This document shows positions 83 to 19,238 of a stretch of DNA of 33,481 nt, one piece after another. The position numbers and the translations under genes are program-made. The notes beneath the pieces are model-generated. The model made no database searches, had not been told where the DNA came from, and saw only the letters and a list, made by a program, of their open reading frames with translations. Source of the DNA: an uncultured Prevotellaceae bacterium (GTDB taxonomy: Bacteria > Bacteroidota > Bacteroidia > Bacteroidales > Bacteroidaceae); the NCBI GenBank assembly GCA_945787235.1, contig CALZGT010000001.1:1-33481 (forward strand), written 5' to 3'. Every line of letters begins with the position of its first letter. Position 1 is the stretch's first letter.

Positions 83-2419
83 TTAGTACTGGGGCAGGGG
101 GAAGTACCAGTTCTTGGTGTCGAGCAGCTTGTTGTAGAGTGCACTGTTCACGCTGCCACTGCGCTGGCTCACGCGCTTGGCCAGGTAGCTGGCATCACCG
201 CGGCGGTGGGCCACACGCATCAGGTCAAAGAAACGGGTACCCTCGAAGGCCAGCTCCAGGGCTTCCTCATCGACGATGAGGTCCTCGATGTAGTTCTGGA
301 TCTGTGCATCGTATGCACCGCCGTAGATGTCTGCCTTGCTCAGGGTCAGGCCTTCCTTGGCCGCTGCCTGCTGGATGAGTGCCACGTAGTCATAGACGCT
401 GTTCCTCATCTGGCTGGGAGGTATGACACCGCAGCCACGGGTGTGGATACCCAGGGTGGCATTGTCCTCGCTGGCATCGTAGGTCTCGCCCTTCGTGCTA
501 GCATAGATAACGGAGAGGTCGTTGCTGTAGTGGAACTGGTAGTTCTTCACGTTACCGTTGAAGTTGTTGATGTCGAAGTTCAGGAAAGGAGCCTGCTTCT
601 TCACCTCGCGGGCATCGAGGTAGTACAGCATCACGTCGCTGTTCTCATCCACGTAGTTCTCGTAGCTGACGGGTTCCCATGTATATTGCTCGTTGGAGAC
701 AGCACCGAAGGAACCATTCTCCACCAGGGCTTGGAAGGCAGCCTGAAGTTCAGCCTTGGTGCCGTATTCGCTTGTGCCGGTGGGGAATACTTGCTGCGTG
801 GTCTCGGTGGTGGTGACAGGGTTGCCTTCCTCATCCACGATATCATTGCCTTCCTCATCTACGGCAGGAATCTCGGTGGTCATGTTGAAGGTGACATAGT
901 AGGCGCTGTCCTTCACGGCAAAGTCGCTGTAGATTACGTTGCCGTCGGCATCGAGGATTTCCCTGGGGTACCAGGTATCGTTCTTGCACAGACCATTCTT
1001 GAGGATGGCAAAGGCGTAGCTGGGATAGCCTGCACGGTTCAGGGCCTCGGCATAGCGGAGCCATACCATGGCCTTACGGTAGATCATGGGATAGACGGTG
1101 GTGAAGCTGCCGCCGGGATTCTGCTTGGTGACGAACTTCTCCGTGCTGCTCATGCCGTTGGGATAGTATTGGTAGATATCCTGTACCCAGTACTGGCGTG
1201 CATCGCCGAAGCCTTCCTTGACGCTGAGCGTCATGTTGGCTGCCGTCTCGTTGTCAGCACCGATGAGCAGTTCGTACTGCTGGGCATTGCAGAGGTTGAA
1301 GTAGCCAGTGCTGGCTGCCAGCTGCTTGGCGTTGTACTGGGGAGTCAGGCGCACGGAGGCCGTGGTCAGTGAGTCGTTGGCACCGGTGCTTACGCTGATT
1401 TCAGAGGTATAGCCGAAGAGGTCGTTGACACCACGCAGTACGGTACCCCACAGCTTGTTGGTGGAAGAGGGGATGCAGGTGATGCTCTCCTGCGTACGGC
1501 TCTGGGCACCCTTCTCCGTCCAGGGGGTCCCACCATTCAAACCTGTGTACTCGGGCTTGTCCATGCGGTCAGTCTTGTACGTCATGTAACTGTAGCTGCT
1601 GGGCAGGGCACCACCGGGCTGCAGCTTGCCGTTGCCGCGCGTGTTGCCCAGGTAGTTGTAGTAGTACTGGGCAGCCTTGGCACAGCTGGCGGCATCACCC
1701 TTGGTGAGGTAGAGGTCGCCGAGGATGAGGTTGAGGGGTATCATGGCCTTGGTACTGTGGCACACGGTAGAGGTGAAGCCATAGTTCTCATAGCTGGGGA
1801 ATCCGTACTGTGTCTCGATGGCCAGGGCACGGGTCAGGAAGGGCTCCAGCAGGTCAGCCAGGTTATCGGCGTTGGCCTTGGGGTGATTGGGGTCACTGAT
1901 GAAGTTGTTGATCTTGTCCGTAGTGAGCAGGGGCTCGGTGTAGAAGGGCACTTCCCCATAGACCTGGATAAGCTGAAGGTAGGTCCAGGCACGGATGGCC
2001 TCTACCTGGGCGTACTCCTTCATCATGTAGGGCTGGTTGGTACCTGTCAGCAGGGTGGTGTCAGCCGAGGCCAGGTAGGCGTTGCAGGAGTTGATGACGT
2101 GGTAGAAGTCACTGGCACGCAGATAGCGGTTGCTGCCGTCGGTGGCCTTCTCCATGTCAAAGTCCAGGATGCTCTTGATGCTGTCGCTCAGGTAGGCGGT
2201 ACCATCCACGAGGTCACCGCGGCACTCGCCCAGCACCACATAGCGCTCGCCTATGTTCTGCATCGAGCGAAGGATGCCCCAGTAGGAGTACAGCGTATCG
2301 CCGGCTACCTCATAAGAATGGCGCTCGCTGTCAGGAGAAAGCATGTCCTGGCATGAGCTGAGACCCATGCCCAGGGTGGCGCTTCCCAAAAGTGATAATA
2401 TGATTGCTTTAACTTTCAT
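83..2419 (-). CDS. SusD/RagB-family outer-membrane nutrient-binding lipoprotein, unusually long at 778 aa
   Basis: ATG start confirmed (cat at 2417-2419). Lipoprotein signal MKVKAIILSLLGSATLGMGLSSC followed by QD. SusD-like N-terminal region (YSYWGILRSMQN). Canonical SusD C-terminal motif EEALELAFEGTRFFDLMR. Lies immediately downstream of a SusC-like gene. Confidence 0.9.
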   Translation of the reverse strand: MKVKAIILSLLGSATLGMGLSSCQDMLSPDSERHSYEVAGDTLYSYWGILRSMQNIGERYVVLGECRGDLVDGTAYLSDSIKSILDFDMEKATDGSNRYLRASDFYHVINSCNAYLASADTTLLTGTNQPYMMKEYAQVEAIRAWTYLQLIQVYGEVPFYTEPLLTTDKINNFISDPNHPKANADNLADLLEPFLTRALAIETQYGFPSYENYGFTSTVCHSTKAMIPLNLILGDLYLTKGDAASCAKAAQYYYNYLGNTRGNGKLQPGGALPSSYSYMTYKTDRMDKPEYTGLNGGTPWTEKGAQSRTQESITCIPSSTNKLWGTVLRGVNDLFGYTSEISVSTGANDSLTTASVRLTPQYNAKQLAASTGYFNLCNAQQYELLIGADNETAANMTLSVKEGFGDARQYWVQDIYQYYPNGMSSTEKFVTKQNPGGSFTTVYPMIYRKAMVWLRYAEALNRAGYPSYAFAILKNGLCKNDTWYPREILDADGNVIYSDFAVKDSAYYVTFNMTTEIPAVDEEGNDIVDEEGNPVTTTETTQQVFPTGTSEYGTKAELQAAFQALVENGSFGAVSNEQYTWEPVSYENYVDENSDVMLYYLDAREVKKQAPFLNFDINNFNGNVKNYQFHYSNDLSVIYASTKGETYDASEDNATLGIHTRGCGVIPPSQMRNSVYDYVALIQQAAAKEGLTLSKADIYGGAYDAQIQNYIEDLIVDEEALELAFEGTRFFDLMRVAHRRGDASYLAKRVSQRSGSVNSALYNKLLDTKNWYFPLPQY

Positions 2420-2442
2420 AATGCTTTTGTTTTAGTGGTTGT

Positions 2443-2582
2443 CCAGAGAGGCTGGGGTGGCTAGGGATTTTTAGTTGTTTTAGTTTTTCTAGTTGTTCTA
2501 GTTAAACTAGTTTTTCTAGTTTTTCTAGCTATTCTAGTTAAACTAGTTCTTCTAGTTTTTCTAGTTCTCCAAGCCTCTCTGG
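2443..2582. repeat. 9-bp-periodic CTAG-core tandem array (about 12 units) bracketed by an 11-bp perfect inverted repeat, in the susC-susD spacer
   Basis: CTAG starts at 2461, 2489, 2498, 2507, 2516, 2525, 2534, 2543, 2552 and 2561, with degenerate TTAG at 2471 and 2480. A 36-bp higher-order duplication covers 2498-2533 and 2534-2569 (32/36 identical). Inverted repeat ccagagaggct (2443-2453) pairs with agcctctctgg (2572-2582). Confidence 0.9.
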
Positions 2583-2589
2583 TTTTTGA

Positions 2590-6003: not shown

Positions 6004-6036
6004 ATTCGTGATATTTGAATTAGGGGTGAGTGTTCG

Positions 6037-7974
6037 TTACTCTGTGGGGGCTTCTGCAGGGTCCTTGGCCACCATGATGATACGGTCGATACAGAGGTTG
6101 TTGGCGAATTTCTTGCCGGGATAGTTCTTGTCCGTACCTTTTCGTTCACTGGATGAACTGTTGGTTCCCAACTCCAGTACAGGCCAGCTGTAGCGCAGGT
6201 TCTTGTAACTGTAGGGGAAGGTGAAGTCCTTGAACAGCCAGATGGTATCTACCTTCAGTCCGTCATATATCACATTGTCCGCCTTGGTAAGGTTCTTCTT
6301 GTCGTTGGTAGCACCCTTGGAGGAACTGTTGTTGTTGCAGTAGTACAGGGTAGCCGTGATACGATGGCACAGTGTGTCGCCCTCGATGGTGTCGCTACTG
6401 GTCTTGTAGAAGTCGGGGACGCAGACTACACCGATGTCATAGGTGCCGCTCATCACCTCGCTTTCGCGGTTTTCACCGTCGGTGCCGAGGAGCTTGAAGA
6501 GGAACTTGATGGAGGTACCATCACCTGTGGGACGGAGTTCATAGAAATTGTTGTAGCTTACGGTACCTACCGTATCTACCCAGTCCTTGGCCACGGCGTT
6601 GCTGAAGGAGTAAGGCTGCGTGCTGCCGCTGAAACTCTGCGAGTCGTACCAGCAAGCCCATCCAATCTCGATGTTCAGGTTGGGCTGGTAGAGCTTCCTC
6701 GGGAAGTTCCAATTGTCGGTCATCACGCCGATACCATTACTCATCTTTATCTGCTTCTTGCCTGCCCAGAGACTCGTCTTGAGCCACTCGTTGTCTGTGC
6801 GGAGGGTATCACCGAAGGTGTTCAGGAGATACTCTATCTCACCGTCACCGGCTGCAATCAGTTCCTCGGTGTTCCAAAGAGGAGCTGAGGTGCTGCGCTT
6901 GGGCTGTCTGCGGGCATTGAACACGGTGGGAGAGATGATGTCCATGTTGATGCTCTGGTCGGTCAGGGAGTCCATCATGTCCTCAGTAATCTCACGGGTG
7001 GCATCCACGTGGCTGTCGCCCTTGTCGCTATCCACATAGTAGTTGGCGTACTTGTAGAGGGGCTTCAGACGGTTGTAGGCTGCCTCCCAGGCGGCATCCG
7101 TGGGAACTATCATCACGAAATCAGAGTCCTCACCCTCGATGTTGGCACCGAAGCTCTCCATGTAGGTCAGGTTCTTGTCTGAGTTGGTCGTAGTGAGGCG
7201 CTTGGTGCTGAAGAACATCTGGTTGGTGTTCGTATAGGCACTATCTACATAGGTGGGGTTGCCGTTGGCATCGGGATTACCCTCGATACTGTTGTACTCG
7301 TTGAAGTAGGTCGTATCGGTGTCCAGAATGTATGCATGATAGCGTGACACGCTGTTCTCGTTGGCATTGTAGCTGTCCTTGAGGTATTCGTACAGGTTGT
7401 ACTTGAAGGGCAGGTTCTCTGCCAGTGTGTGCAGGGTACCGTTGCTGGCCTCGATGTTCTTCTGCTTGATGGCTATCTTCTGCATCGTACCGTTCTTCTT
7501 GTCCAGTTCCAGGCGTTTGCCGTTGATCATCTGCAGGGTGTCGAGCCCCTCACCGATGACGCTGTAGCGCCACAAGGATACGGTGTTGGCCATCAGCTGC
7601 TGGTGAACACCATAGGGATTGGTTTCGAGCATCGATTCCCACTTGGCCACCTCAGCCTCTGTGAGTGCATCGTTCTCGGGGGCAAAGACCGTCATCAGCT
7701 GGGTGCCGCTGAGCATGTCCTTGTAGGTATAGGGCTTTCCTGTCTTGGGATTCGTCAGGGGATGTACCTGATCCTTGTAGTAGGTGGTCTTCTCTGCCAG
7801 AGCTGCATAGCGGCTCAGGTTCGGATTGGCCTTGATGCGCTCCCAGAGCGTTTCGGTGGCAGAGGTGCCTTCCGTAGGATTGTAGTGCTCGTCCCAGGTG
7901 TCGGTACATGAAGCACAGAGCACGAGGGCAGTGGCACCCAATCCCAGTTTTATGTTATTGATGATTCTTTTCAT
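6037..7974 (-). CDS. Surface lipoprotein with an N-terminal fasciclin (FAS1) domain and a roughly 450-aa uncharacterised C-terminal region
   Basis: Lipoprotein signal ...ALVLCASC followed by TDTWDE, where the acidic residues after Cys suggest surface export. FAS1 H1-like motif LMTVFAPENDAL and H2-like motif SNGTLHTLAENLPF. Confidence 0.75.
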   Translation of the reverse strand: MKRIINNIKLGLGATALVLCASCTDTWDEHYNPTEGTSATETLWERIKANPNLSRYAALAEKTTYYKDQVHPLTNPKTGKPYTYKDMLSGTQLMTVFAPENDALTEAEVAKWESMLETNPYGVHQQLMANTVSLWRYSVIGEGLDTLQMINGKRLELDKKNGTMQKIAIKQKNIEASNGTLHTLAENLPFKYNLYEYLKDSYNANENSVSRYHAYILDTDTTYFNEYNSIEGNPDANGNPTYVDSAYTNTNQMFFSTKRLTTTNSDKNLTYMESFGANIEGEDSDFVMIVPTDAAWEAAYNRLKPLYKYANYYVDSDKGDSHVDATREITEDMMDSLTDQSINMDIISPTVFNARRQPKRSTSAPLWNTEELIAAGDGEIEYLLNTFGDTLRTDNEWLKTSLWAGKKQIKMSNGIGVMTDNWNFPRKLYQPNLNIEIGWACWYDSQSFSGSTQPYSFSNAVAKDWVDTVGTVSYNNFYELRPTGDGTSIKFLFKLLGTDGENRESEVMSGTYDIGVVCVPDFYKTSSDTIEGDTLCHRITATLYYCNNNSSSKGATNDKKNLTKADNVIYDGLKVDTIWLFKDFTFPYSYKNLRYSWPVLELGTNSSSSERKGTDKNYPGKKFANNLCIDRIIMVAKDPAEAPTE

Positions 7975-8012
7975 ATCGTTTGTTGTTTGGTCGTTTTCAA
8001 CTATAAAAACAC

Positions 8013-10142
8013 TTACCAGATGTCCTCGGGGGTCATGGGGTTGTCATAAACCTCCTTGGCGCAGTACTCGATGTAGTCCATGTAGAACTGCTTGTTCTTG
8101 TCAGAGAGCACGGTCTTGAACTTCAGGTAATAGGTCTCGTCGGGATTCATCTCCTGACGTACGATGATACGACGGGTGGTGGTCTTCTCGGCACGAGCCG
8201 TCACCGTACCGCTGCCGATGCAGTAGTTCTCTGCACCCTTCATGAACCCGTTGTTACGCATCTTCTTGTCGTTCTCAGCGTTGAGGTCATCATCCGTGGG
8301 ACTGTCGGCCGTCCAGCCAAGAAGTTCGTGGGTACCACCGATGCGGAGATCAAGAGGAATACCTACGGCAGGCATCCTGTTCTTGTCAGAGCCGAAATAA
8401 ACTTGGCACATACCGCGCTGACCTGAGTTGTTCTGTACGGCATAACGGATTTCATAGATACCCTTCATGGGTACGGGAGGCAGACGGAAAATCATCTCGT
8501 AACTGCCTACGATGTTCAATTCGTCACCCTGCCAGTTGTTCCAATAGCGGTTGTAACCACCCAGATAGTAAAAGAGGGTGCCATCCATGATATCTACATC
8601 CTCCAGATAGCGGTACTTGCTGGTCTCGGGTATTCCGACTACGACTGCCTTGACGCGGTTGTCACGGATGTCGTTGTTCATGAACTCGGGGAAGAAGCTG
8701 GACACGTCAAAGCGGAGACGCTGCTTCTGGAAGTTCTCACGGGTAGCCTCATCGTAGGCCAGCACCTCGTTGATGGGGTAGATGTAGGCATTGACGGGGT
8801 TCTCGTACTCCGTGGTGTTCACCTGGATTCCTTCCTTGTCGGCATCGCATGACAGCTCGTGGTAGGTACCGCGGCGCCCGTTGTCCAGTACGGGGAAACG
8901 GTTGATGTAGATACCTGCAGGGGCTCCCTTGCCTCCTTCGTAGAGTTTCATCAGACGGCGCTTGCCCATCGTGGTGTGGAGCTCCCAGGTAGGAATGGTA
9001 TAGGGGTTGGAAGAGGGGTTGTAGCGATAGCCCTTCTCGTTGTAGTGGATGACGAGCTTGTTGGTAGGCAACTTCACGGGCAGGATGTGATAGGTCACAA
9101 ACTGGTTGAGCACGTTCTCGGGGTCGTTGTACTTGCCGTTGTCCTTGGCATTGGGGTACAGGTTCTGGTTCACTACCCAGTCCTTGATGTCCTCTACGGT
9201 GATTTCCGTGGCAGGCTTGCCGATCTTCTTCTCCCATACGTCATTGGTCTCGGCGAAGATGGTGTAACCGTAGTAGCGGTGTTCGGGCAGGAAGTTGTCG
9301 TTGGGCTCCGTGGGATGCTTGGGCAGCTGGGCTACCTCCTCGTTGAGGTACATCTGCTCCCATACCTCATCCTTCACCTTGCTCAGCGTGTCGAAGAGTC
9401 CGCAGGCTTCAATCATCTTGGCTGTAACGAGGAAACGTTCGTCCTTCAGGTCGATGTAGTTCTTCAGGATGTCGGCCACGCTCTCGTTGGAGGGAGCCAC
9501 TACCTGGTGCATCTGATGGATGCAACCATTGATGGCCACGATGTCGCGGTTCTTCAGGTCGATGAGGCTTCCATCCGTAATCTCACCCGTCTTCTTGTCC
9601 TTCTTTCCGTTGACATAGAGGGAGTCGGGGTCTTTGCCGAAGACCACCGTCAGCTTGCGGTCGTAGAGGTTGCTGATGAGCAACTCCTCGCCGTCCTTGA
9701 ACGAACTGGTCTGGTAGGCCTCGTTGTTGTCCTTGCTGTCAATGATACTGTTGAAGACGATGACCTTGCGGATGGAGTCCAGCGTTTCCTGGCTCTGGAA
9801 ACCTTCCCAGGTAGGCTCTGTGATGAGACCCTTGCTGCAAAGGCTGTCCAGGTAGGTCTGGATGGCCTTGTTGGTGGGGGCGAATACGGTGAAGTTACCG
9901 CGGGCACCCATCAACTGCAGTACCGTGGACTGCGAACGTGAACTGATCTTTACCTCACCCAACAGTCTGTAGTATTCGCTGTAGGTCGTGTCGTGTGATG
10001 ACAGGTAACTGCTGACCGTATATTGGGTAAAGGTATAGCGGTCGGACATGTCGATGTCCTCCTTGCAACTCTGGGTCATAGCAAGTCCCAGGACTCCCAT
10101 GAACAGCAGTGCGTATTTTTTCATTTTACTGATTTTTCTCAT
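8013..10142 (-). CDS. Surface lipoprotein with two FAS1 (fasciclin) domains and a C-terminal beta-sandwich-like region
   Basis: Signal ...GLAMTQSC followed by KEDIDMSD. FAS1 motifs FTVFAPTNKAIQTYL with INGCIHQMHQVVAPS, and YTIFAETNDVWEKK with AYIYPINEVLAYD. The true start could be the internal MKKYALLF at 10124. Confidence 0.75.
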   Translation of the reverse strand: MRKISKMKKYALLFMGVLGLAMTQSCKEDIDMSDRYTFTQYTVSSYLSSHDTTYSEYYRLLGEVKISSRSQSTVLQLMGARGNFTVFAPTNKAIQTYLDSLCSKGLITEPTWEGFQSQETLDSIRKVIVFNSIIDSKDNNEAYQTSSFKDGEELLISNLYDRKLTVVFGKDPDSLYVNGKKDKKTGEITDGSLIDLKNRDIVAINGCIHQMHQVVAPSNESVADILKNYIDLKDERFLVTAKMIEACGLFDTLSKVKDEVWEQMYLNEEVAQLPKHPTEPNDNFLPEHRYYGYTIFAETNDVWEKKIGKPATEITVEDIKDWVVNQNLYPNAKDNGKYNDPENVLNQFVTYHILPVKLPTNKLVIHYNEKGYRYNPSSNPYTIPTWELHTTMGKRRLMKLYEGGKGAPAGIYINRFPVLDNGRRGTYHELSCDADKEGIQVNTTEYENPVNAYIYPINEVLAYDEATRENFQKQRLRFDVSSFFPEFMNNDIRDNRVKAVVVGIPETSKYRYLEDVDIMDGTLFYYLGGYNRYWNNWQGDELNIVGSYEMIFRLPPVPMKGIYEIRYAVQNNSGQRGMCQVYFGSDKNRMPAVGIPLDLRIGGTHELLGWTADSPTDDDLNAENDKKMRNNGFMKGAENYCIGSGTVTARAEKTTTRRIIVRQEMNPDETYYLKFKTVLSDKNKQFYMDYIEYCAKEVYDNPMTPEDIW

Positions 10143-10161
10143 GATGTATTCCTCCTAACGA

Positions 10162-12225
10162 TTAGTCATACTGAGACTTGTTCCATACAGGGTTCTGCTC
10201 CAGGTGCTGCACACCATTGGCATCCTTGCTGGCCTGAATCTCCTTATAATAAATAAGGTTGTACAATCCGTAGCGGTTCTTCATGTGGTTGCGCAGCGAA
10301 GCTACCTGTCCACTCTGCAGGGTATTTGACATGAAGGTTTCGAGCATCAGCTTTACACCTGCGGCACCGTTGCCGATAGGACGTGCCTCGGTGTATTCGC
10401 GTACATCCTTCGTGCCATCCATGCCACCGGCGTGACGTTCTGCAAAGCGTACGAGGTCGAACCAACGCTTGCCTTCTGCCAGCAGTTCTATCTGTCGCTC
10501 GTTCAGTACGGCTACCTCCACGGGCTGAATGCTCTTGTCTGGCGTCTTGGGGGCGCAGATGTTACCAGCGGTCTTGGCTATCGTGGCACTGGTGAAGTAG
10601 GCATAGCCATCGTTGTTCATCACATCGGTGGCAGGTACCTCGGGATGGGTGGCATCGGGGCAGTACCAGCGGCGGTGGATGGCATTGACGATGCGGAGGG
10701 CATCCTTGGCGTAGTCATCAGTTGCCTTATTACTCAGGCAAGCCAATGCCTCGGCCTTCTGCAGCATGACATCGCTCATGCGGTAGATGATCCAGTTGCG
10801 GTATGCCTGTTCGTCTGTACTGGTGCTTATCTTCAGACCATTGTCCTCGACCTTGCCGTTCTCGGGGGTGCTTACGCTCGCATCTCTCCACTTGAAGCAG
10901 TAGGCTCCAGGGAGGCTCGTGGTGTAGCTCGTGCTACCCAGTCTGGAAACGTTGCCCATGCAGCTGAACCAGGCACGGGAGTCGTACAGACGGGAACTTC
11001 CGCTGTAGATAGCATCAATGGCAGACTCGCTGATGGCCAGATGTACTTTGTCACCATATCCCCACTGCGCTGTAGCCACTTCATTCTTACGGCTGTCGCT
11101 GCTGTTGAACTGGAGTTCGAAGATGCTCTCGTCACTGTTGCCATTGGTGAAAATCTCATTGTAGGCCGTGAGACTCACGCCACCGCCGTCCTTGAAGTAC
11201 TCATAACGGTTCTTGTACATATCGCAATACTGAAGGCCGTAGTTTTCAGTCTCACTTCGGCTCGAACCATAGTTGCTGTTGTTCAGGATGGTCTGCTCGT
11301 TGAGCTTCTGGAGGGAGAGGTCGGCGTAGTGGATACACATATTGTAGTCACCCTCTACGCTGTGAGGTACGAACATGCTGTCGTTGCGCTCCACAAGGTT
11401 GGCAATGTTACCCTTGTTGATACCGCTTTTCACCCAGACGGTATCCATCTCGATACCACGTCCCTGGTGCAGGGAGGCACGCCACAGGTACATGTCGCTC
11501 AGTAGGGCATAGATGGCCGTGTTGGTCATAAGTCCCTTCGTGTCCTTGAGGGAGGTGTAGCGGTTGGCCGCCTGTCCCTTCACACGCTCCACGTCGATGA
11601 TAAGGGAGTCGAGGACCACGAGCTGGTTCGTAGCATTGAAGTATTCCACTTCCGTATCCTTGTTGATGACCTTCGTGGTGTAGGGAATGTCCTTGAAGGA
11701 ACGGAGCAGGTAGAAATAGTTCAGGGCGCGCAGGGCGGTAATCTCTGCCCTCATCTGGCTCCACTCACTGGAAGTGAACTGCTTGTCGTTGGCAAGTACG
11801 TCAGCTCCATGGTAGAGAATCTTGTTGCAGTAGTTGATGGTTGTGTAGAAACCGCTCCAGTCGAAATACGTATTGGCAGAGTCGCGTTCCAGACGGCCCT
11901 CACGCAGTTCGTTGTAGAAATTCTTGGTACTGGTGCTTTGGTCGGCGGTGGAGAGGACGTAGGTGTCAGAGCGAAGGTCGCCCCAGAGCACCATCTTCTC
12001 CAGCGTGCCGCACATGCTGGTATAGGCAGCATAGCGTACACCCTCAAGGTCATTCTTGTCTTCCCAGAAATTCTCTTCCACAATCTGAGTCTGGGGGTAG
12101 ATGGTCAACCAATCCTGGCAGGAGGTCAGGGCTGCCAAAGCTACAGCCCCCATTCCAACCTTCCCGAGGGAGAAGCCGTGGAATGTCTTGCTGACCATTC
12201 TTGAGATTATGTTGTGTATTCTCAT
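10162..12225 (-). CDS. SusD/RagB-family outer-membrane nutrient-binding lipoprotein (687 aa)
   Basis: ATG at 12223-12225. Lipobox ALAALTSC followed by QD. SusD-type motifs ENFWEDKNDLEGVRYAAY and ELLAEGKRWFDLVRF. Lies downstream of a SusC-like gene. An alternative start at 12198 is possible. Confidence 0.9.
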   Translation of the reverse strand: MRIHNIISRMVSKTFHGFSLGKVGMGAVALAALTSCQDWLTIYPQTQIVEENFWEDKNDLEGVRYAAYTSMCGTLEKMVLWGDLRSDTYVLSTADQSTSTKNFYNELREGRLERDSANTYFDWSGFYTTINYCNKILYHGADVLANDKQFTSSEWSQMRAEITALRALNYFYLLRSFKDIPYTTKVINKDTEVEYFNATNQLVVLDSLIIDVERVKGQAANRYTSLKDTKGLMTNTAIYALLSDMYLWRASLHQGRGIEMDTVWVKSGINKGNIANLVERNDSMFVPHSVEGDYNMCIHYADLSLQKLNEQTILNNSNYGSSRSETENYGLQYCDMYKNRYEYFKDGGGVSLTAYNEIFTNGNSDESIFELQFNSSDSRKNEVATAQWGYGDKVHLAISESAIDAIYSGSSRLYDSRAWFSCMGNVSRLGSTSYTTSLPGAYCFKWRDASVSTPENGKVEDNGLKISTSTDEQAYRNWIIYRMSDVMLQKAEALACLSNKATDDYAKDALRIVNAIHRRWYCPDATHPEVPATDVMNNDGYAYFTSATIAKTAGNICAPKTPDKSIQPVEVAVLNERQIELLAEGKRWFDLVRFAERHAGGMDGTKDVREYTEARPIGNGAAGVKLMLETFMSNTLQSGQVASLRNHMKNRYGLYNLIYYKEIQASKDANGVQHLEQNPVWNKSQYD

Positions 12226-12249
12226 ATTTGTTGTTTTTATGGTTTTGTT

Positions 12250-12351
12250 CTAGTGGGGCTAGGGTAACTCGTGAATGACGTTAGTTACGTTACTATCGTT
12301 AATGATGTCCTAACGTTCTTAGCGTTCTTATCGTTAATCTAGCCGATCTAG
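12250..12351. repeat. 9-bp-periodic array with CGTT/ACGT-core units flanked by CTAG units, in the second susC-susD spacer
   Basis: CTAG at 12250 and 12259. CGTT at 12279, 12288, 12297, 12314, 12323 and 12332. CTAG at 12339 and 12348. Spacing is 9 bp with one 1-nt phase slip. A weak flanking inverted repeat pairs ggctag (12257-12262) with ctagcc (12339-12344). Confidence 0.8.
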
Positions 12352-12362
12352 TTCTCTTTGTC

Positions 12363-15300
12363 TTAGAAGCCGATGTTCACGCTGCAGGTGAAAGACTTGG
12401 CACGAGGTGTCTTGCTGTAGTCCGTGGCCACGGCAAAACCTCCGATACCTACTTCAGGATCCACACCCGTGTACTTGGTCCAGCAGAACACGTTGTTGAG
12501 GGTGGCAGAGAGGTAGAGGGTCTTGATGCCGGCCTTCTTCATCCACTGCTTCTTGTTGTCGAACGTGTACTTCATCTGGATGTACTGCAGACGGAGGTAG
12601 TCACCATTCTCTACGTAGCGGTCGCTGGGCAGTGAGTTGTAGCTCTTGTAACCGTTCTGTGTCGTGAGGGCGCGGGGAATCTCCGTGATGTCACCGTTCT
12701 TGCGCCAGCGCCATGTGGTGGCATAGCTCTGGTTGGTGTTGTCCAGCATGCTCTCGTAGTTGGCACGTGCCATGTTGACAATCTGGTTGCCGATGCGGAA
12801 GTTGAATGAAGCGTTCAGCTCGAACTTGCCGTAGTAGAGGTTTACACCGAAACCACCATAGCACTTGGGGTTGGAGTTGCCCAGATATACCATATCGTAG
12901 CGGTCAATGTTACCATCGTGGTTGATGTCCTCATAGATGGCATCACCACCCTGGAACTGGTAGCGGCTACCCTCGGTGTAGCAGTAGTACATGGGCAGGG
13001 GGTTACCTTTCTGGTCTGTCAGCATGTTGCCCTGGGCATCGAAGGCGATGGGGCAGGTGCTGTTTTCACCACGACGGGCTGCAGCAGCTGCCGTGTTGAT
13101 GGGGTTGCCCTTCTTGTCGTAACCCGTACCCAGGCGGGCTGCCTCATCCGCACTGGAGAAGGTGTTGCCGTTGGCATCCACCTCGGCATATCCGTAGGCA
13201 TTCCATGAGGTGTTGGTATAACCGTTGTGGTCGTAGTCGTAGCGATATACACCCTTTGACCTCAGACCGTAGATGGAACCGAGGGCGTTGTTGATCTGCA
13301 CGCGCTGGTTGAAGGAGAGGTTGGTGGGCTCCCAGGTCTCAGAACCGTTCAGGTTCTCCAGGATGAGCTCGTTCATCTCCTCCACGGTGTTGAAGTTCTG
13401 AGATACGTTACCACGCAGCTTCATTGAGAACTTGCCTGCCTTGGCAAACTTGCCCGTGTTGAAGTTGAGCTCCCATCCCTTGTTGCGCATCCTACCAGCG
13501 TTGATCCAGTTCAGGTTGTTGAAACCGTTGGCAGAGGGGATTCGGAGACCCGTCATGAGCAGGTCGGTGGTCTTCTTGTCATACACCTCGAACTCGAAGT
13601 TCAGCAGGTCATCGAGCAGGCCCAGGTTGGCACCGATGTTCCATTGTGCCGTCTTCTCCCACTTCAGGTTGGTCAGGGAGAGGTTATCGGGACGAACTAC
13701 GGTGTGACCGTTGTAGTAACCGGCAGAGCTGTACTTGTTGTACTGGTTGCCGCCGGCACCGCCCGTGTTACCTGTGATACCCCATGAACCACGTACACCG
13801 AGCATGCTGATGTACTTGCGGGTCTTCTCCATGAATTTCTCATCGATGACGTTCCAGCGTCCACCGAAGCTGGGGAAGGTACCATACTTGTGGCCGCGAC
13901 CGAAGGCTGTACGGCCATCGGTACGAACGGTGACATCCACAGAGTACTTGCTCTTATAAGAATAATGCAGCTGCTCCATGAAAGAATGGCTGCGCCACTC
14001 GCTGTTGCTGGCACCGGCTCCCTTCATCAGGGCCACCACGGTCGGATCGGTGATACCGTTGGGTACGTTCCAGAGTTCCAGGTTCTGGTTGGAAGAAGCA
14101 CCTGTTTCCATCTCGAAGCGGAACATACCGGAGAGGCTGTGGTCAGAATTCTTGAAATGAGAATAGTAGCGAAGGTCATGACGCGTGGTGAATCCCAGTG
14201 ACTTGTATTCGCTGTTGGACACCAGGTTGCGCTCGTTGTTGGCCAGGTTGGCACTGTTGTCACCACCCCATACCCATGACATGGGCTTCAGGTCGGCGGG
14301 ACAGAACTTGTCATCACTGGTGTTGTAGATGTTCAGCTGCACGTCACCCACGTAGTCCAGACGATGGGAGTCGTTGTCCTTGCCCCAGAGCTTGTAGGTC
14401 ACGTCGAACTGGGGAGTCAGGTTGTACTGCTTCATCAGCCACCAGGCACCATAGGCACGTGCTACGGGGTTACCATTCTTGAAGCGGTCACGCAACTCGT
14501 AGCTGGTGTAGTGTCCGTCGTTGGTGAAGCCCGTCGTGTTGCTGCTGCTGAGGGTAGCGGCGATGGGCAGCATGTTGAAGTAGTTACCCGTCAGGCGACC
14601 CGTCTCGTCGTATTCATAGATGCTCATGTTGGGCATGGCACCATAGGCGCGGGCCATGATGTCGTTGCCGTAGTTCTTGTGGTTGTTGGTGAAGGTCATG
14701 TTCACCGTGGCACGGAACTGGATGCGGTCACTCACGTTGTAGTCGATGACGGTAGATTCCGTGAACTGGTCCATCTTCTGGCCAATGACAGAACCCATAC
14801 TCTTGTTGTAACCGGCGCCGATGCGGAAGGTTGCCTTGTCACCACCACCCGTCAGGTTGATATAGTAGCGGTGCTCCTTACCAAACTGAGTCACGGCATC
14901 AATCCAGTCGGTATTGTGCGTGTAGTGGTTGTAGATGTAGGGCATTTCCGTGTTGTAGTCCAACTCAGGAATGGAGGTTGCCGTCTGGTTGGGGTTGAAG
15001 TAAGCCTCCTTGAGCATCATGGTGTAACCGTCACCATTCAGCATTTTGTATCCTTCGGGCTGCCAGGTACCGTTGAACTTGTAGGAGAAGTTCACCTGGG
15101 TAGGACCACGGCGACCACGGCGCAACTTGATTTCGATGACACCGTTGGAACCCTTTACACCCCACTTGGCTGCTGAGGCGGCATCCTTCAGTACCGTGAT
15201 GCTCTCGATGTCCTCCGTGTTCACGTTCAGCAGGGTAGAGAACTGCTCCTCGTTGTCCATGTCCTCGAAGTTGATGGTCTGTGCATCGTCGGGAAGTTCG

Positions 15301-15896
15301 AAGATGTGGTCATTTACAACGATAAGCGGCTGGGCATTACCGTTGATGGTCGTGGTACCGCGCAGACGCATCGTAGTACCTGAACCCAGGTTACCGGAGT
15401 TGGCCACGATGTCCAGACCGGCAATCTGACCCTGCAGTGCCTGATCTACAGACTCGAAGGCCAGACCCTCCATGTCATCCATGCTGAAGTTGGAGACAGC
15501 TCCGGCAAACTCACGTGCAGGAATGTCCAGACCCGTGGTGGGAGCCTTCTTCTTGGCGGTGACGTTCACCACCTTCATCTCCTTCGTGTTGTCCTGCAGA
15601 CGGATCTTGAACACCGTCTTGTTTCCGATGACCTGTACCCACTTGCGGTATCCGATATAAGATACCTCCAGGTTGTTCTTGGGGTCTTTGATGTTCATCG
15701 TAAAGTTACCGTTGAAGTCAGTGACCTGGCTGTTCACGATACGGTTGTTCTTATCGACCTCTTTTACGTTGGCGCCTACTACCACGTCGATATCATCGCT
15801 AACGGTACCAGAGATACGTCTTGTCTGTGCGCTGGTCGTCAGGGTCACCATGAGGCTGACGATTCCGACCCATAATAATTTCATATATCTATTCAT
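12363..15896 (-). CDS. SusC/RagA-family TonB-dependent outer-membrane transporter (1177 aa)
   Basis: ATG at 15894-15896. Signal peptide ends in TLTTSAQ. Carboxypeptidase-regulatory-like domain (ISGTVSDD...NGNFTMNI). Plug motifs RLRGTTTINGNAQPLIVVND and GVKGSNGVIEIKLRRGR. Motif GGDAIYEDINHDGNIDRYD. C-terminal aromatic residue (...SVNIGF). No STN domain. Confidence 0.93.
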   Translation of the reverse strand: MNRYMKLLWVGIVSLMVTLTTSAQTRRISGTVSDDIDVVVGANVKEVDKNNRIVNSQVTDFNGNFTMNIKDPKNNLEVSYIGYRKWVQVIGNKTVFKIRLQDNTKEMKVVNVTAKKKAPTTGLDIPAREFAGAVSNFSMDDMEGLAFESVDQALQGQIAGLDIVANSGNLGSGTTMRLRGTTTINGNAQPLIVVNDHIFELPDDAQTINFEDMDNEEQFSTLLNVNTEDIESITVLKDAASAAKWGVKGSNGVIEIKLRRGRRGPTQVNFSYKFNGTWQPEGYKMLNGDGYTMMLKEAYFNPNQTATSIPELDYNTEMPYIYNHYTHNTDWIDAVTQFGKEHRYYINLTGGGDKATFRIGAGYNKSMGSVIGQKMDQFTESTVIDYNVSDRIQFRATVNMTFTNNHKNYGNDIMARAYGAMPNMSIYEYDETGRLTGNYFNMLPIAATLSSSNTTGFTNDGHYTSYELRDRFKNGNPVARAYGAWWLMKQYNLTPQFDVTYKLWGKDNDSHRLDYVGDVQLNIYNTSDDKFCPADLKPMSWVWGGDNSANLANNERNLVSNSEYKSLGFTTRHDLRYYSHFKNSDHSLSGMFRFEMETGASSNQNLELWNVPNGITDPTVVALMKGAGASNSEWRSHSFMEQLHYSYKSKYSVDVTVRTDGRTAFGRGHKYGTFPSFGGRWNVIDEKFMEKTRKYISMLGVRGSWGITGNTGGAGGNQYNKYSSAGYYNGHTVVRPDNLSLTNLKWEKTAQWNIGANLGLLDDLLNFEFEVYDKKTTDLLMTGLRIPSANGFNNLNWINAGRMRNKGWELNFNTGKFAKAGKFSMKLRGNVSQNFNTVEEMNELILENLNGSETWEPTNLSFNQRVQINNALGSIYGLRSKGVYRYDYDHNGYTNTSWNAYGYAEVDANGNTFSSADEAARLGTGYDKKGNPINTAAAAARRGENSTCPIAFDAQGNMLTDQKGNPLPMYYCYTEGSRYQFQGGDAIYEDINHDGNIDRYDMVYLGNSNPKCYGGFGVNLYYGKFELNASFNFRIGNQIVNMARANYESMLDNTNQSYATTWRWRKNGDITEIPRALTTQNGYKSYNSLPSDRYVENGDYLRLQYIQMKYTFDNKKQWMKKAGIKTLYLSATLNNVFCWTKYTGVDPEVGIGGFAVATDYSKTPRAKSFTCSVNIGF

Positions 15897-15907
15897 GGTA
15901 GTGCGTA

Positions 15908-18889
15908 TTAATGGATTTCGAATCTCTTTATGTATTCACGAGCCTTTGCCTCGTCAGCCCAGGTGCTGTCATGACGGCCGCCTTCCAGTTTTACATGGTT
16001 CAGCGTGTGGGGAATCTGGTGGATTACGGTGAATGAAGATGCCGTAATCTTGATGCCGTTCATGGAGTTCTGTCCCGTGGGGTTCTTGCTCACTACCATG
16101 TCACGTGCCAGCACGTTGTAGCGACCTTCGATGTCCTGCCATTCTCCGTCGTTGACATCCTTGACAGAGAGCGTGCCGTTCTGACGCTTCACGTTGAGCT
16201 TCACGAAGAGGCCCTTCTTGTTGTCGTAGCTTGAACTTACATAGTCAGTAGCATCGAAGTTGCTCTTATCGACAAATACACTGTTGTCGGCAAAGTGGTA
16301 GCGCACGAAGTTGGTCAGATAGGTAATCTGGGCCTGCAGCTTGAGGCTGTCAGCCGTGGTCAGCGCAGGGTTGCCCTCCTCGTCCAGACAACTGTTGTAG
16401 TAGTCCGTGATGCTCTCCCAGGTGGGAAGTCCCTGGGCTACAGCCTCGTCCATGGCCTCATTGGTAGGAACGAAGAGCGTGTAGTGGTAGTTGTTGTAGA
16501 ACTGCACGTTGTAGTCCACGGCATCACCATTGTTCACAAAGAGCATGTACTTCTTCATTTCTGCCTTCTGCTCATTGGTGGTCAGGTTCTTGGTGTCAAC
16601 CAAACCGCAGGACTTGATGATGTTCTCGTCGGGCGTACAGCAGTACTCATAGAACTTGGTATAATAGGGGCTGTCATACTGTCCTCCGTGGGTCAGGTTG
16701 TTATAGACACTCTTGGAAGCGGGGACGATGGGGCTGTCGAGGATGTAGGTAGTACCGTTGTTCATCATGTTTTCGTCTGTGACATTGTTGCACTGGATAC
16801 CTTTGATGTCAGCATATACATTCTTGTTGTCGGGAGAAATCTCACCCACGATACCGGCATCCTCGTTCTCGAGCTGGAATCCACCCTGTACCTTTACCAC
16901 CTTACCATTTTCGCGCGTAACTTTAATAGGTGAATAGTTCTTGGCGATGTAGTACTCGTCCACGTCGCTGTCAATCTCATCCATGCCATCCAGTACGATG
17001 GTGTGGCTCTCCAGAATATCCTTCAGACGGTTCGTAACCTCATCGTTTGAAATGGACTCCAGACCGTAGCTCTTTCCGATGGTACCCGTGGAGGCGTTGT
17101 ATTCATACTTGTCCACCTTGATGGGGAAAGAACCGTTCTTGTAGGAGAGGCTCAACACGCGGGGCTTCTTACTGGTGAAGCTGACGGGGTCATAGTAGTA
17201 AGCCATACCCTTGTCGCTCGGAATCAGGAAGACGAAGCGGCTCTGCATGGCCTTGAGGTAAGCATAATAGTTGAGCTTCATGTAGTCGGTGGCAGAAGTA
17301 GATCCATTATATACGGCCCAGCGCATTACCAGGTTGGTACCGCTGATGTAGGCGGGAGCCGCTACTGAGGTGTAGTCGGCAGGACCATATACCTTGTCAG
17401 TGACGTAGATGACACCGTTGTTGGCCAGCATGGAACGGGTGATGTGCTCCTGGTCGTCAGCATAGAAAATCTGCTCCTGGGCATCGTCTCTCAGCGTGGT
17501 CATCTTGCTGGGAACAGAACCCTTGAAACTGGGGAACATGATGATGTTGAGCAAAGAACGCAGTGTACTCAGGGGAATCTGGTCAATCTGCTTGAAGAGT
17601 TCCTCCTGGGTGGTCGGAGCTACGTAGGGAATCTCGTCGGGAGTGCCCTCCTTCAGGTAGTATGTACGGATGAGCTGCCATCCACCGCCACCTTCCGAGA
17701 AGTACTTCCACATGGTCTCGTCATCGGGAACATACATGGCTGCCATGTCGTATTCTGCGCTGCGGTCCTCGTTGTAGAAGGCGTTCCATCCCGGGTCGAA
17801 CTTCAGCGTGACATCGGTAGATTGAGCGTCGCGGAAGGTTTCTCCGAAGGGATCCCTGTTCAGAGAACCATGTCCCCAGCTTAGGTCGCTGAAGTAACGC
17901 TTGGTGAAGATAGAGTCTTTCCACTCGATGCCGCGTGAAGCCATGATATCGGTGTAGGCACGGGTCACGGTACGGTTGTAGAAAGGTACTGACCAGCGGT
18001 CGAGCATGTGGCTGAAGATGTTTGTCTGTCCATTGGTGCGGAGCAATTCAGCCATGTTGGGGAGGGGCGTGATGACCTTGGAAGTCTTGTTGACGTAACC
18101 ATTCTCGCAGACACCATCCTTCTCCTGCAGGAGAGCATCATATATGTGAACGTCCTCCGTGTTACGCTCCTCGTTCATGAAAGTAGCGAAATCCTCATCT
18201 GTAATCTGGTTCTTCTTCATGTGCTCGTTGGTAAAATGCACCATCATGCTGGCTGAAGAGTCGTTGACCAGATAGAGACCGTTACCTCCGTTCTCGGTAC
18301 GGAAGCGCCACCAGTAGTCTTTTTCCTCGTTGCCGACGTTGTAGTTGGTGGGCAGGGAGTTGCCATCCAGGTAGGTGATGGAGTCGGTGGTCTCCACGTC
18401 GGTGTAGCGTCGCATGAACTCGCCGCGTGTCATCGAACCATTCTCCATGTTGCTGGCCAAGTTCTCCATGACGATGGCGTTGTTCAGCATACTGGTGTGT
18501 ATCAACAGTTTCTTCTGTGATACGGAGAGGTTCTCGTAACTTGTGGCGGTGTGCCAGGGGTCACTCTCGGGGAGTGTGGCATTCTTCTTGAAGAACGCTT
18601 CCCAAGCCTCGTCGTCAGCTACAAACACGGTCTTTGAACCTGTGCGGGAAAGCACCTCGGTAAGAGGTCGTGCGTTGGCTGGATTCACGTCTTTGTCGCC
18701 CAGGAGGCGGATGTAGTACTTGTAGTTACCCTTGGACTCCAGGCTCTCGTAGATGCTGGAATTCAGGAAACCAGGCTTTTCATCGTCCAGTCTGTACTCA
18801 TCCTTGCATGAAGACGTGATGCCGTACGCAGCAAGCAAGACCAGCATCCAGGATGCTGACTTACCCATTTTGCTTAAACGGTTTCTCAT
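15908..18889 (-). CDS. Large surface lipoprotein with at least three FAS1 (fasciclin) domains (993 aa)
   Basis: Lipobox AAYGITSSC followed by KDEYRLDDE. FAS1-like motifs KTVFVADDEAWEAF, MYVPDDETMWKYF with NGVIYVTDKVYGP, and TLFVPTNEAMDEAV with FTVIHQIPHTL. It is the first gene of the SusC/D block. Confidence 0.75.
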   Translation of the reverse strand: MRNRLSKMGKSASWMLVLLAAYGITSSCKDEYRLDDEKPGFLNSSIYESLESKGNYKYYIRLLGDKDVNPANARPLTEVLSRTGSKTVFVADDEAWEAFFKKNATLPESDPWHTATSYENLSVSQKKLLIHTSMLNNAIVMENLASNMENGSMTRGEFMRRYTDVETTDSITYLDGNSLPTNYNVGNEEKDYWWRFRTENGGNGLYLVNDSSASMMVHFTNEHMKKNQITDEDFATFMNEERNTEDVHIYDALLQEKDGVCENGYVNKTSKVITPLPNMAELLRTNGQTNIFSHMLDRWSVPFYNRTVTRAYTDIMASRGIEWKDSIFTKRYFSDLSWGHGSLNRDPFGETFRDAQSTDVTLKFDPGWNAFYNEDRSAEYDMAAMYVPDDETMWKYFSEGGGGWQLIRTYYLKEGTPDEIPYVAPTTQEELFKQIDQIPLSTLRSLLNIIMFPSFKGSVPSKMTTLRDDAQEQIFYADDQEHITRSMLANNGVIYVTDKVYGPADYTSVAAPAYISGTNLVMRWAVYNGSTSATDYMKLNYYAYLKAMQSRFVFLIPSDKGMAYYYDPVSFTSKKPRVLSLSYKNGSFPIKVDKYEYNASTGTIGKSYGLESISNDEVTNRLKDILESHTIVLDGMDEIDSDVDEYYIAKNYSPIKVTRENGKVVKVQGGFQLENEDAGIVGEISPDNKNVYADIKGIQCNNVTDENMMNNGTTYILDSPIVPASKSVYNNLTHGGQYDSPYYTKFYEYCCTPDENIIKSCGLVDTKNLTTNEQKAEMKKYMLFVNNGDAVDYNVQFYNNYHYTLFVPTNEAMDEAVAQGLPTWESITDYYNSCLDEEGNPALTTADSLKLQAQITYLTNFVRYHFADNSVFVDKSNFDATDYVSSSYDNKKGLFVKLNVKRQNGTLSVKDVNDGEWQDIEGRYNVLARDMVVSKNPTGQNSMNGIKITASSFTVIHQIPHTLNHVKLEGGRHDSTWADEAKAREYIKRFEIH

Positions 18890-19010: not shown

Positions 19011-19018
19011 CAAATTTA
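19011..19018 (-). promoter_or_regulatory. Candidate Bacteroidetes -7 promoter box (TAnnTTTG) for the FAS1/SusC/SusD operon
   Basis: The minus strand reads TAAATTTG. A TTTG (plus-strand caaa at 19041-19044) lies about 22 nt upstream as a possible -33 element. This implies a 5' leader of roughly 120 nt before the ATG at 18889. Based on a motif match only. Confidence 0.4.
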
Positions 19019-19149
19019 GAAAAAAATATCAATACCATCACAAATAACATATAAAAATCCATAAAAAATGCGCAAAAAGTACAAAAAAGCTGCCTGGCGA
19101 TTCCAAATAAGGCATTGAACCCCCAATTATTGTTACTTTTTTAACGCAA

Positions 19150-19198
19150 GAACCGGTCGCAGGCTGTGGTGTGTTTCACCATGCTCTGCGACCGGTTC
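19150..19198 (-). terminator. 13-bp-stem hairpin downstream of the T9SS glycoside hydrolase gene; candidate intrinsic terminator
   Basis: gaaccggtcgcag (19150-19162) is the exact reverse complement of ctgcgaccggttc (19186-19198), with a 23-nt loop. It sits 41 nt after the stop at 19239. There is no clear U-tract. Confidence 0.5.
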
Positions 19199-19238
19199 CA
19201 GTCGTATTGTTCTTCCTTGTAGCTTGCCCAGTGTGGAG

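Follow-up and report, generated by a model that had tools for sequence, protein, structure and literature searches.

A seven-gene SusC/SusD cassette with fasciclin-domain lipoproteins beside a glycoside hydrolase unit in an uncultured Prevotellaceae bacterium

Layout of the locus

Contig CALZGT010000001.1 of an uncultured Prevotellaceae bacterium (assembly GCA_945787235.1) carries, at positions 83-18889 of the minus strand, seven genes that combine two pairs of SusC and SusD proteins with three lipoproteins built on the fasciclin (FAS1) fold. The window, by which we mean the whole stretch of DNA analysed (33,481 nucleotides), is an entire 33.5-kb contig of a 2.25-Mb metagenome-assembled genome (MAG) that is 81% complete, and all of its long open reading frames are on the minus strand. 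In the direction of transcription the cassette order is F1-SusC1-SusD1-F2-F3-SusC2-SusD2. A first-pass annotation of this DNA had given the same order, strand and extent, and the open reading frame list reproduces them exactly:

15908..18889, minus strand: F1, 993-residue predicted surface lipoprotein with four enlarged FAS1 domains
12363..15896, minus strand: SusC1, 1177-residue SusC/RagA TonB-dependent transporter (TIGR04056, Plug, CarboxypepD_reg)
10162..12225, minus strand: SusD1, 687-residue SusD-family lipoprotein, C-QDWLT (PF07980 69.3 bits, PF14322 53.4 bits)
8013..10142, minus strand: F2, 709-residue predicted surface lipoprotein with two FAS1 domains and a C-terminal beta-sandwich
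6037..7974, minus strand: F3, 645-residue predicted surface lipoprotein with two FAS1 domains and a C-terminal region of ~215 residues
2590..6003, minus strand: SusC2, 1137-residue SusC/RagA transporter (TIGR04056)
83..2419, minus strand: SusD2, 778-residue SusD-like lipoprotein, SSC-QDMLSPDSE (PF07980 46.1 bits)

Gaps between the genes are 11-38 nt, except before SusD1 and SusD2 (137 and 170 nt), and the contig ends 82 nt past the SusD2 stop codon. The FAS1 lipoproteins are the only accessory genes inside the operon, as had been proposed.

SusC1 and SusC2 score 617.8 and 599 bits against TIGR04056 (cut-off 368), and both contain Plug and CarboxypepD_reg domains (Pfam). No STN domain was detected in either, including in a separate scan of the N-terminal 200 residues at E<=1, which bears out the earlier reading. 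SusD1 matches both SusD_RagB and SusD-like_3, and SusD2 matches SusD_RagB at 46.1 bits. The locus therefore holds two adjacent susC/susD pairs, the arrangement by which a Sus-like polysaccharide utilisation locus (PUL) is recognised. The two SusC proteins are 24% identical over the C-terminal half (BLASTP), the N-terminus of SusD2 resembles that of SusD1 (E 1e-9), and F1, F2 and F3 can barely be aligned to one another.

FAS1 lipoproteins

All three lipoproteins exceed the gathering threshold (22) of the Pfam Fasciclin family PF02469, at 34.9 bits for F3, 29.6 for F2 and 26.6 for F1, so the FAS1 assignment made at first sight is recoverable by hidden Markov model. The Pfam model detects only one domain per protein, and this is an undercount, the remaining domains being too divergent. 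Three, two and one FAS1 domains had been counted in F1, F2 and F3; the two of F2 stand, but F1 has four and F3 has two. These arrays were recognised in F1 and F2 from AlphaFold2 models searched with Foldseek, and in F3 from profile-profile comparison.

The F1 model, built on an alignment of 34 orthologues (predicted local distance difference test, pLDDT, 84.4), places FAS1 domains of ~220-240 residues each at about residues 40-275, 278-503, 505-723 and 728-965. Over ~945-959 columns it aligns with TGFBIp and periostin, both of which have four FAS1 domains (E about 1e-15), and no binding module other than FAS1 is recognisable in it. F2 (pLDDT 82.7) consists of FAS1 domains at ~40-218 and ~219-476 followed by a beta-sandwich at 477-700. 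Foldseek pairs the F2 model with periostin, TGFBIp and fasciclin I (1e-11 to 5e-8), and its C-terminal fold matches the carbohydrate-binding modules (CBMs) CBM4-2 (1k42), CBM6 (2cdo) and CBM35 (2w47) and the xylan-binding MiXBM (7ehg) at E 2e-4 to 2e-3 and a target template modelling (TM) score of about 0.5. In a search of 1.84 billion representatives this module is always C-terminal. The sandwich is mobile: it also occurs in BspA-type leucine-rich repeat (LRR) surface proteins of ~960-1180 residues and in one FGE/sulfatase-modifying-factor-domain protein (P0411, P0417, P0452, P0468, P0467).

F3 has FAS1 domains at ~35-192 and 195-430 and a C-terminal region at ~430-645. Its residues 81-185 match a FAS1 domain of TGFBIp at E 3e-12 in a profile search of the PDB, and hhalign of F3 against the F2 family gives a probability of 96.3% and E 1.5e-9 over 363 columns that run across both FAS1 domains. 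From isolated segments at E<=1, Pfam recovered extra FAS1 domains only for F1 domain 4 and, weakly, domain 1, and domain-by-domain hhalign connected only F1d1, F1d4, F2d1, F2d2 and F3d1. Because these isolated-segment profiles failed, the additional domains required structure prediction and whole-family hhalign. No solved structure of a bacterial FAS1 lipoprotein of this kind is among the fold matches.

The N-termini carry the lipoboxes noted at first reading (CKDEY, CKEDID, CTDTWDE), with acidic residues after the Cys: ITSSC-KDEY in F1, MTQSC-KEDID in F2 and LCASC-TDTWDEHY in F3. The Cys (C28, C26 and C23, respectively) is invariant among orthologues. A K/D/E-rich stretch follows it, F2 and F3 lie directly downstream of SusD1, and we infer that all three proteins are exported to the cell surface. 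The first-pass annotation had put the FAS1 proteins in the positions of surface glycan-binding proteins. This fits F2 and F3, which follow SusD1, but FAS1 itself need not be what binds, as F2 has a CBM-like beta-sandwich.

Sequence beyond the lipobox is also conserved into distant cassettes, as C-KD(D/E)Y.YD..EP.WLG in F1, C..D....YYTFTGE in F2 and C.D.W(N/D).HY in F3. Mature F3 begins with C-(T/S)-D-x-W-(D/N)-x-H-Y, a motif that is kept from pig-gut Bacteroidaceae to distant Bacteroidales families and exceeds a simple acidic export signal; the F1 motif (C-KD(D/E)Y.YD..EP.WLG.SIYD) is similarly conserved.

Conservation and chromosomal context

The F2 family comprises at least 1970 proteins and the F1 family at least 1199, and their names say no more than 'fasciclin domain-containing' or 'hypothetical'. 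With one genome scanned per species, at least 577 species have a relative of F1. Uncultured herbivore-gut Bacteroidaceae/Prevotellaceae account for all of the best 80, and the close relatives listed are MAGs from the gut of livestock or wild herbivores (rumen, faeces and other gut sites). The cassette occupies a fixed chromosomal site in ~80 gut MAGs, pyrF-lpxD-lpxC/fabZ-lpxA-PRiA4-miaA-(PBP1a)-(PIF1)-(GH43)-(GH128-like)-F1-SusC1-SusD1-(F2)-F3-SusC2. Beyond SusD2 the neighbours are unrelated between relatives, indicating that the cassette ends at SusD2.

At the level of the order, a profile search of an even sample of 301 Bacteroidales genomes (209 genera) found the F1 family in 14 genomes and 12 genera. 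When 400 genomes sampled evenly across the phylum were searched with one protein, P0002, at E 1e-10, only the genome of the window itself was returned, the query being too specific. Ten loci from other Bacteroidales families have the identical seven-gene order F1-SusC1-SusD1-F2-F3-SusC2-SusD2 at 25-42% identity, and each gene best matches its positional counterpart (SusC1 with SusC1, SusC2 with SusC2). Counted by genome, the order recurs in 9 further Bacteroidales genomes outside the family, and the complete genomes G648 and G511 are among the carriers of the cassette. On this sequence evidence the cassette is of ancient origin, and SusC1/SusD1 and SusC2/SusD2 belong to separate lineages. A recent tandem duplication of the pairs is ruled out by the 24% identity of the SusC proteins together with the positional orthologues kept across families.

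This conservation bears on what the FAS1 proteins might do. FAS1 is a protein or cell adhesion fold in eukaryotes, and the three lipoproteins could be adhesins to plant particles or host surfaces that take no part in SusCD transport. Such a role would agree with the adhesive function of FAS1 in other organisms and with an F1 in which nothing but FAS1 is recognisable as a binding module. However, the three FAS1 genes are spread among those of the two SusCD pairs within a single tightly spaced operon, and this interleaving has been kept across families at such low identity, which argues for a shared machine. We consider a purely adhesive role very unlikely indeed.

Some variation exists among the close relatives. 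F2 is missing in 22/80 loci (F1-SusC-SusD-F3-SusC; L017, L019, L025-L027, L033, L036 and others) and F3 is replaced by a second F2-like gene in 6/80, indicating that F2 is dispensable and that F2 and F3 are partly interchangeable.

The same MAG (G000) holds at least one further, partly assembled cassette, on contigs C66 (9150-11438) and C94 (5-8928). On C66 an F1-like gene runs off the contig end, and only housekeeping genes (AddAB-like, panB) lie upstream. C94 has the end of an F1-like gene, SusC (1116 residues), SusD (606 residues), an F2-like gene of 700 residues that shares 28% identity with F2, and the first part of an F3-like gene (CTDTWNEHF). The F1 ends of the two contigs overlap with two residues different, so they represent either one split locus with strain variation or two loci.

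Two other genes of the site deserve mention. A PRiA4_ORF3-like gene (178 residues, window 28801-29337) lies between lpxA and miaA and keeps this position in almost all related MAGs. A PIF1-family helicase fused to C-terminal TPR repeats (672 residues, window 23344-25362) is variably present among relatives between PBP1a and the glycoside hydrolase/cassette region, with a metatranscriptome depth of 0-3.

An upstream glycoside hydrolase unit

The first-pass annotation reported no glycoside hydrolase (GH) in the seven-gene block. This is correct for those seven genes only, as two secreted GH-like proteins are encoded on the same strand 350 nt upstream of F1:

19239..22106, minus strand: P0004, secreted 955-residue GH128-like (PF11790) clan GH-A enzyme with a signal peptide
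22110..23267, minus strand: P0005, secreted 385-residue GH43-like five-bladed beta-propeller glycosidase

These are the co-located carbohydrate-active enzymes (CAZymes) expected of a Sus-like PUL, in what looks like a transcription unit of their own. P0004 scores 61 bits against PF11790 (threshold 21), with a catalytic domain at ~206-480 and a beta-rich C-terminal region. A profile of its family (24 homologues) matches the GH128 beta-1,3-glucanase structures 6uaq, 6uat, 6ufl and 6uas at E 1e-14. Its NEP acid/base and TEW nucleophile motifs align with those of GH128, and neither E281 nor E388 varies among the homologues. As a single sequence it is very divergent, matching GH128 at only E 0.007. 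Judged by these motifs, P0004 is a GH128-like enzyme that has kept both catalytic Glu. The same family profile weakly matches the C-terminal sorting domain of HBP35 (E 0.003), and P0004 is possibly sorted by the type IX secretion system (T9SS). Neither Pfam nor NCBIfam detected Por_Secre_tail (PF18962 / TIGR04183) on it, and other matches to such C-terminal domains in the same genome are likewise below threshold.

P0005, whose true start is the ATG at 23267 as set by orthologue N-termini, matches PF04616 (E 3.7e-11, 43.3 bits, threshold 32.2) and PF00251 (E 1e-8). It reaches 83.7 bits, below the cut-off, with the NCBIfam alpha-arabinofuranosidase model NF052546. It matches PDB entry 4qqs at E 2e-6, and a profile search of the PDB gave only E >= 1e-4 to GH130, GH43 and GH32 entries. 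Among named proteins its nearest relatives are alpha-L-arabinofuranosidases, at a distance that allows no assignment to a subfamily.

The association of these enzymes with the cassette extends beyond the close relatives. PF11790 occurs in 32/301 of the Bacteroidales genomes, and in two genomes from other families (G494 and G680) F1 is directly preceded on its own strand by a long (~920-residue) PF11790 gene. Adjacency of GH128 and F1 within 5 kb has a chance expectation of 0.04, with P(>=2) = 8e-4. A third genome (G511) has a PF11790 gene within 12 kb of the cassette, and P0005-like GH43 genes with 45-48% identity are near the cassette in G511 and G610.

Several features of relatives touch this region. 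In the closest relatives (F1 66-74% identical) an extra gene for a secreted protein of ~960 residues lies between the GH128-like gene and F1; it has no significant Pfam match and is absent from the window (L005:6817-9696, L013:6856-9747, L032:6018-8879). Seven rumen relatives have a secreted M6 (immune inhibitor A-like) metallopeptidase of ~760 residues directly upstream of F1, in the GH position (L045, L046, L048, L049, L052, L054, L076, about 7100-9560). Many Prevotella homologues of P0004 (P0349-P0365) carry a type I dockerin (PF00404), and in one relative a gene for a dockerin/beta-helix protein separates the GH from F1 (L009:8411-9634); we know of no cohesin partner for Bacteroidota dockerins. 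An apparent 1289-residue GH43-GH128-like fusion in L058/L059, which would have spoken strongly for a functional tie, was rejected, as a stop codon separates two genes.

Transcription of the cassette

Two features lie between P0004 and F1:

19011..19018, minus strand: Bacteroidetes-type promoter -7 box TAAATTTG, with TTTG about 21 nt upstream (TTTG-N21-TAAATTTG)
19144..19205, minus strand: terminator-like hairpin directly after P0004

The hairpin folds at -41.7 kcal/mol (z = -6.0), and 0/200 shuffles fold as well. The promoter box is a motif match only, of a kind not enriched in the window overall; a transcript of all seven genes is predicted to start there.

Near-identical DNA is present in pig-gut metagenomes, and four pig-gut metatranscriptomes have contigs over the whole cassette at >=95% identity, the long pieces mostly within 1% divergence. 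RNA contigs cross gene junctions (for example 6815-12957). By word depth, a crude measure of expression, the cassette lies at 13-60, on a par with the lpx genes of this contig and far in excess of PIF1/PBP1a at 0-5. Depth is 2-13 exactly in the intergenic region between F1 and P0004 and 5-25 over the GH unit. One RNA contig terminates at 18970, inside the stretch that separates the predicted promoter from the F1 ATG, and depth rises at the promoter box. The depth pattern speaks for RNA and for a distinct, well-expressed transcript of the cassette.

Proposed function

SusCD systems are the main route by which gut Bacteroidota take up complex nutrients, and their accessory surface proteins set what is captured. 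We propose, as the probable reading, that the cassette serves to capture and import a nutrient, most probably a polysaccharide, at the outer membrane, with depolymerisation supplied by the upstream GH unit. The observations behind this proposal are the gene content, folds, conservation, synteny, in vivo transcription and recurrent GH128-like adjacency; the surface localisation, complex formation, binding roles and substrate that it entails are extrapolated from them. Two different SusC barrels, each with its own SusD lid, would carry out TonB-dependent import, and F1, F2 and F3 would be exported to the cell surface. F2 may act as a two-FAS1 stalk that presents the C-terminal beta-sandwich, in the manner of a SusE/F-type surface glycan-binding protein. 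F3 probably has the same stalk-plus-binder role, and the four-FAS1 rod of F1 may serve as a scaffold or an extended binder. Secreted P0004 (possibly T9SS-sorted) and P0005 would perform the depolymerisation.

Given that the GH unit encodes a GH128-like enzyme and a GH43-like glycosidase, the likeliest target is beta-1,3-linked. A beta-1,3-linked glucan (dietary or fungal), or a related glycan with furanoside decoration, is a possible substrate that we put forward only tentatively. It is the weakest link of the account, since it draws on a divergent GH128-like enzyme and one external result from reverse-transcription quantitative PCR (RT-qPCR). In PUL 10 of Alkalitalea saponilacus five genes separate a GH128 gene (CDL62_12280) from a SusC/SusD pair (12310/12315) beyond them, and that pair is induced by laminarin and not by xylan (RT-qPCR; PMC13591233). 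The spacing exactly fits GH128-F1-SusC-SusD-F2-F3-SusC-SusD, and A. saponilacus is probably a carrier of the cassette; that paper names no fasciclin proteins and gives no description of the intervening genes of PUL 10 (PMC13591233).

Several points weigh against a polysaccharide importer served by the upstream enzymes. The C-terminal domain of F2 has no CBM family match by sequence, and the idea that it is fused to CAZymes elsewhere was rejected, its carriers being BspA-type LRR and FGE-like proteins instead; it could equally be a docking module. Residues 430-645 of F3 have no match by Pfam, by profile search of the PDB or by hhalign to the F2 C-terminus, and to our knowledge no FAS1 domain is known to bind glycans. 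With a hairpin and then a promoter between P0004 and F1, the GH pair and the cassette appear to be transcribed as two neighbouring units, and RNA contig depth is a poor guide to expression. Among 67 loci with at least 4 kb of upstream sequence, both GH genes lie upstream of F1 in 17, only the GH43-like gene in 8 and neither in 42. Flanking enzymes elsewhere are mixed (GH2, GH127, GH95, GH31, GH43-CBM6, GH97, esterases, lyase-like, LamG/cadherin-like T9SS and M6 peptidase), and this heterogeneity may mean that specificity differs between lineages or that the cassette is generic. No linked regulator of the hybrid two-component system (HTCS), extracytoplasmic function (ECF) sigma/anti-sigma or SusR type is present in the 33.5-kb contig, and the first-pass annotation had likewise seen none in the seven-gene block. 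Finally, for A. saponilacus PUL 10 the likeness to the cassette is read from gene spacing.

Some of these points would be expected if the cassette were a stand-alone scavenging importer of oligosaccharides released by the community or by enzymes encoded elsewhere, with the upstream GHs mere neighbours at a conserved spot. The separate promoter and hairpin, the lower RNA depth on the GH unit, the majority of close relatives with neither GH upstream, and the second cassette on C66/C94 with only housekeeping genes before it all point in this direction. Against it, a GH128-like gene stands next to the cassette in two other families as well, far more often than chance would give, the same GH43-like subfamily is near the cassette in G511 and G610, and the GHcc and GH43 genes are retained in the closest relatives. 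On balance, we regard a scavenger independent of the GH unit as unlikely.

The ligand could instead be a glycoprotein, a proteoglycan or a non-glycan, as the first-pass annotation had suggested, for instance a protein or peptide, with FAS1 domains acting as protein-binding adhesion modules. RagAB, a SusCD homologue, imports peptides; the best structural matches of the FAS1 arrays are the adhesion proteins TGFBIp and periostin; the M6 peptidase takes the place directly upstream of F1 in seven relatives; and the C-terminal domain of F2 is shared with BspA-type LRR surface proteins. However, most flanking enzymes across lineages are glycoside hydrolases, the fold on F2 is CBM-like, and the GH128-like enzyme is recurrently linked to the cassette. 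The laminarin-responsive SusCD of PUL 10, at the position expected for the second pair by spacing alone (PMC13591233), also speaks for a glycan. A protein-type ligand thus seems quite unlikely, and capture of a polysaccharide remains the reading we favour.

A bolder version of the polysaccharide importer would make the seven proteins an obligate hetero-oligomeric 'twin utilisome', in which F1 bridges or organises the two SusCD units, F2 and F3 feed them, and FAS1 itself contributes to glycan recognition. This is doubtful, but if true, FAS1 arrays would form a novel class of surface protein in bacteria, as glycan binders or scaffolds, and an ancient fold would gain a carbohydrate-related function. 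Even the simpler proposal concerns a fixed, ancient, in vivo-expressed cassette that uses a fold not known to have been studied in a SusCD accessory role. Knowledge of its ligand and architecture would add a surface glycan-binding or scaffold type to the PUL paradigm, could explain how uncultured Prevotella-like bacteria of the rumen and hindgut harvest a particular fibre or fungal glycan, and would open a way into the function of bacterial FAS1 domains.

Comparison with known systems

The closest functional parallels are the Sus system of B. thetaiotaomicron (SusC/D/E/F/G) and the levan and dextran utilisomes, in which a SusC barrel and SusD lid are likewise accompanied by surface lipoproteins from genes that directly follow susD. 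Those lipoproteins present beta-sandwich binding domains, for which the C-terminal domain of F2 is a candidate counterpart. The lack of STN domains is a further likeness, as are HTCS-type regulators, which are found near the cassette in some distant relatives (G588, L084). In contrast to those systems, the cassette has tandem FAS1 arrays instead of chains of immunoglobulin-like (Ig-like) domains and CBMs, two different SusCD pairs in a fixed seven-gene order, a four-FAS1 protein before the first SusC, and no lipoprotein glycosidase inside the operon.

The chitin utilisation locus of Flavobacterium johnsoniae encodes CusCI/DI, CusCII/DII and the T9SS-secreted ChiA. It resembles the present locus in having two SusCD pairs and a large secreted multi-domain enzyme without a lipobox, which in ChiA carries a C-terminal sorting domain and in P0004 may do so. 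It differs in having no FAS1 proteins and a GH18 enzyme, and the T9SS tail of P0004 is weakly supported. A. saponilacus PUL 10 holds a GH43, as here, plus GH16_3, GH2, GH31 and GH97, which are not found here. P0004 shares its Glu motifs with the GH128 beta-1,3-glucanases (6uaq, 6uat, 6ufl, 6uas) but is divergent and has extra N- and C-terminal domains.

The FAS1 proteins have their best structural matches in TGFBIp, periostin and fasciclin I, which are also linear arrays of two or four FAS1 domains. Unlike these eukaryotic matrix proteins, F1, F2 and F3 are lipoproteins with FAS1 domains enlarged to ~180-260 residues, have no CROPT or EMI domain, and are encoded in a SusCD operon. In the searchable literature we found no paper linking fasciclin proteins to SusCD systems, no account of these FAS1 lipoproteins as parts of a PUL and no experimental study of them.

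With SusC/SusD pairs and adjacent CAZymes the locus belongs to the PULs by their core definition, albeit with no visible regulator. What sets it apart is the use of FAS1 arrays as accessory lipoproteins, the fixed twin-pair, seven-gene architecture, and the four-FAS1 protein that leads the operon, all of which remain within the PUL paradigm.

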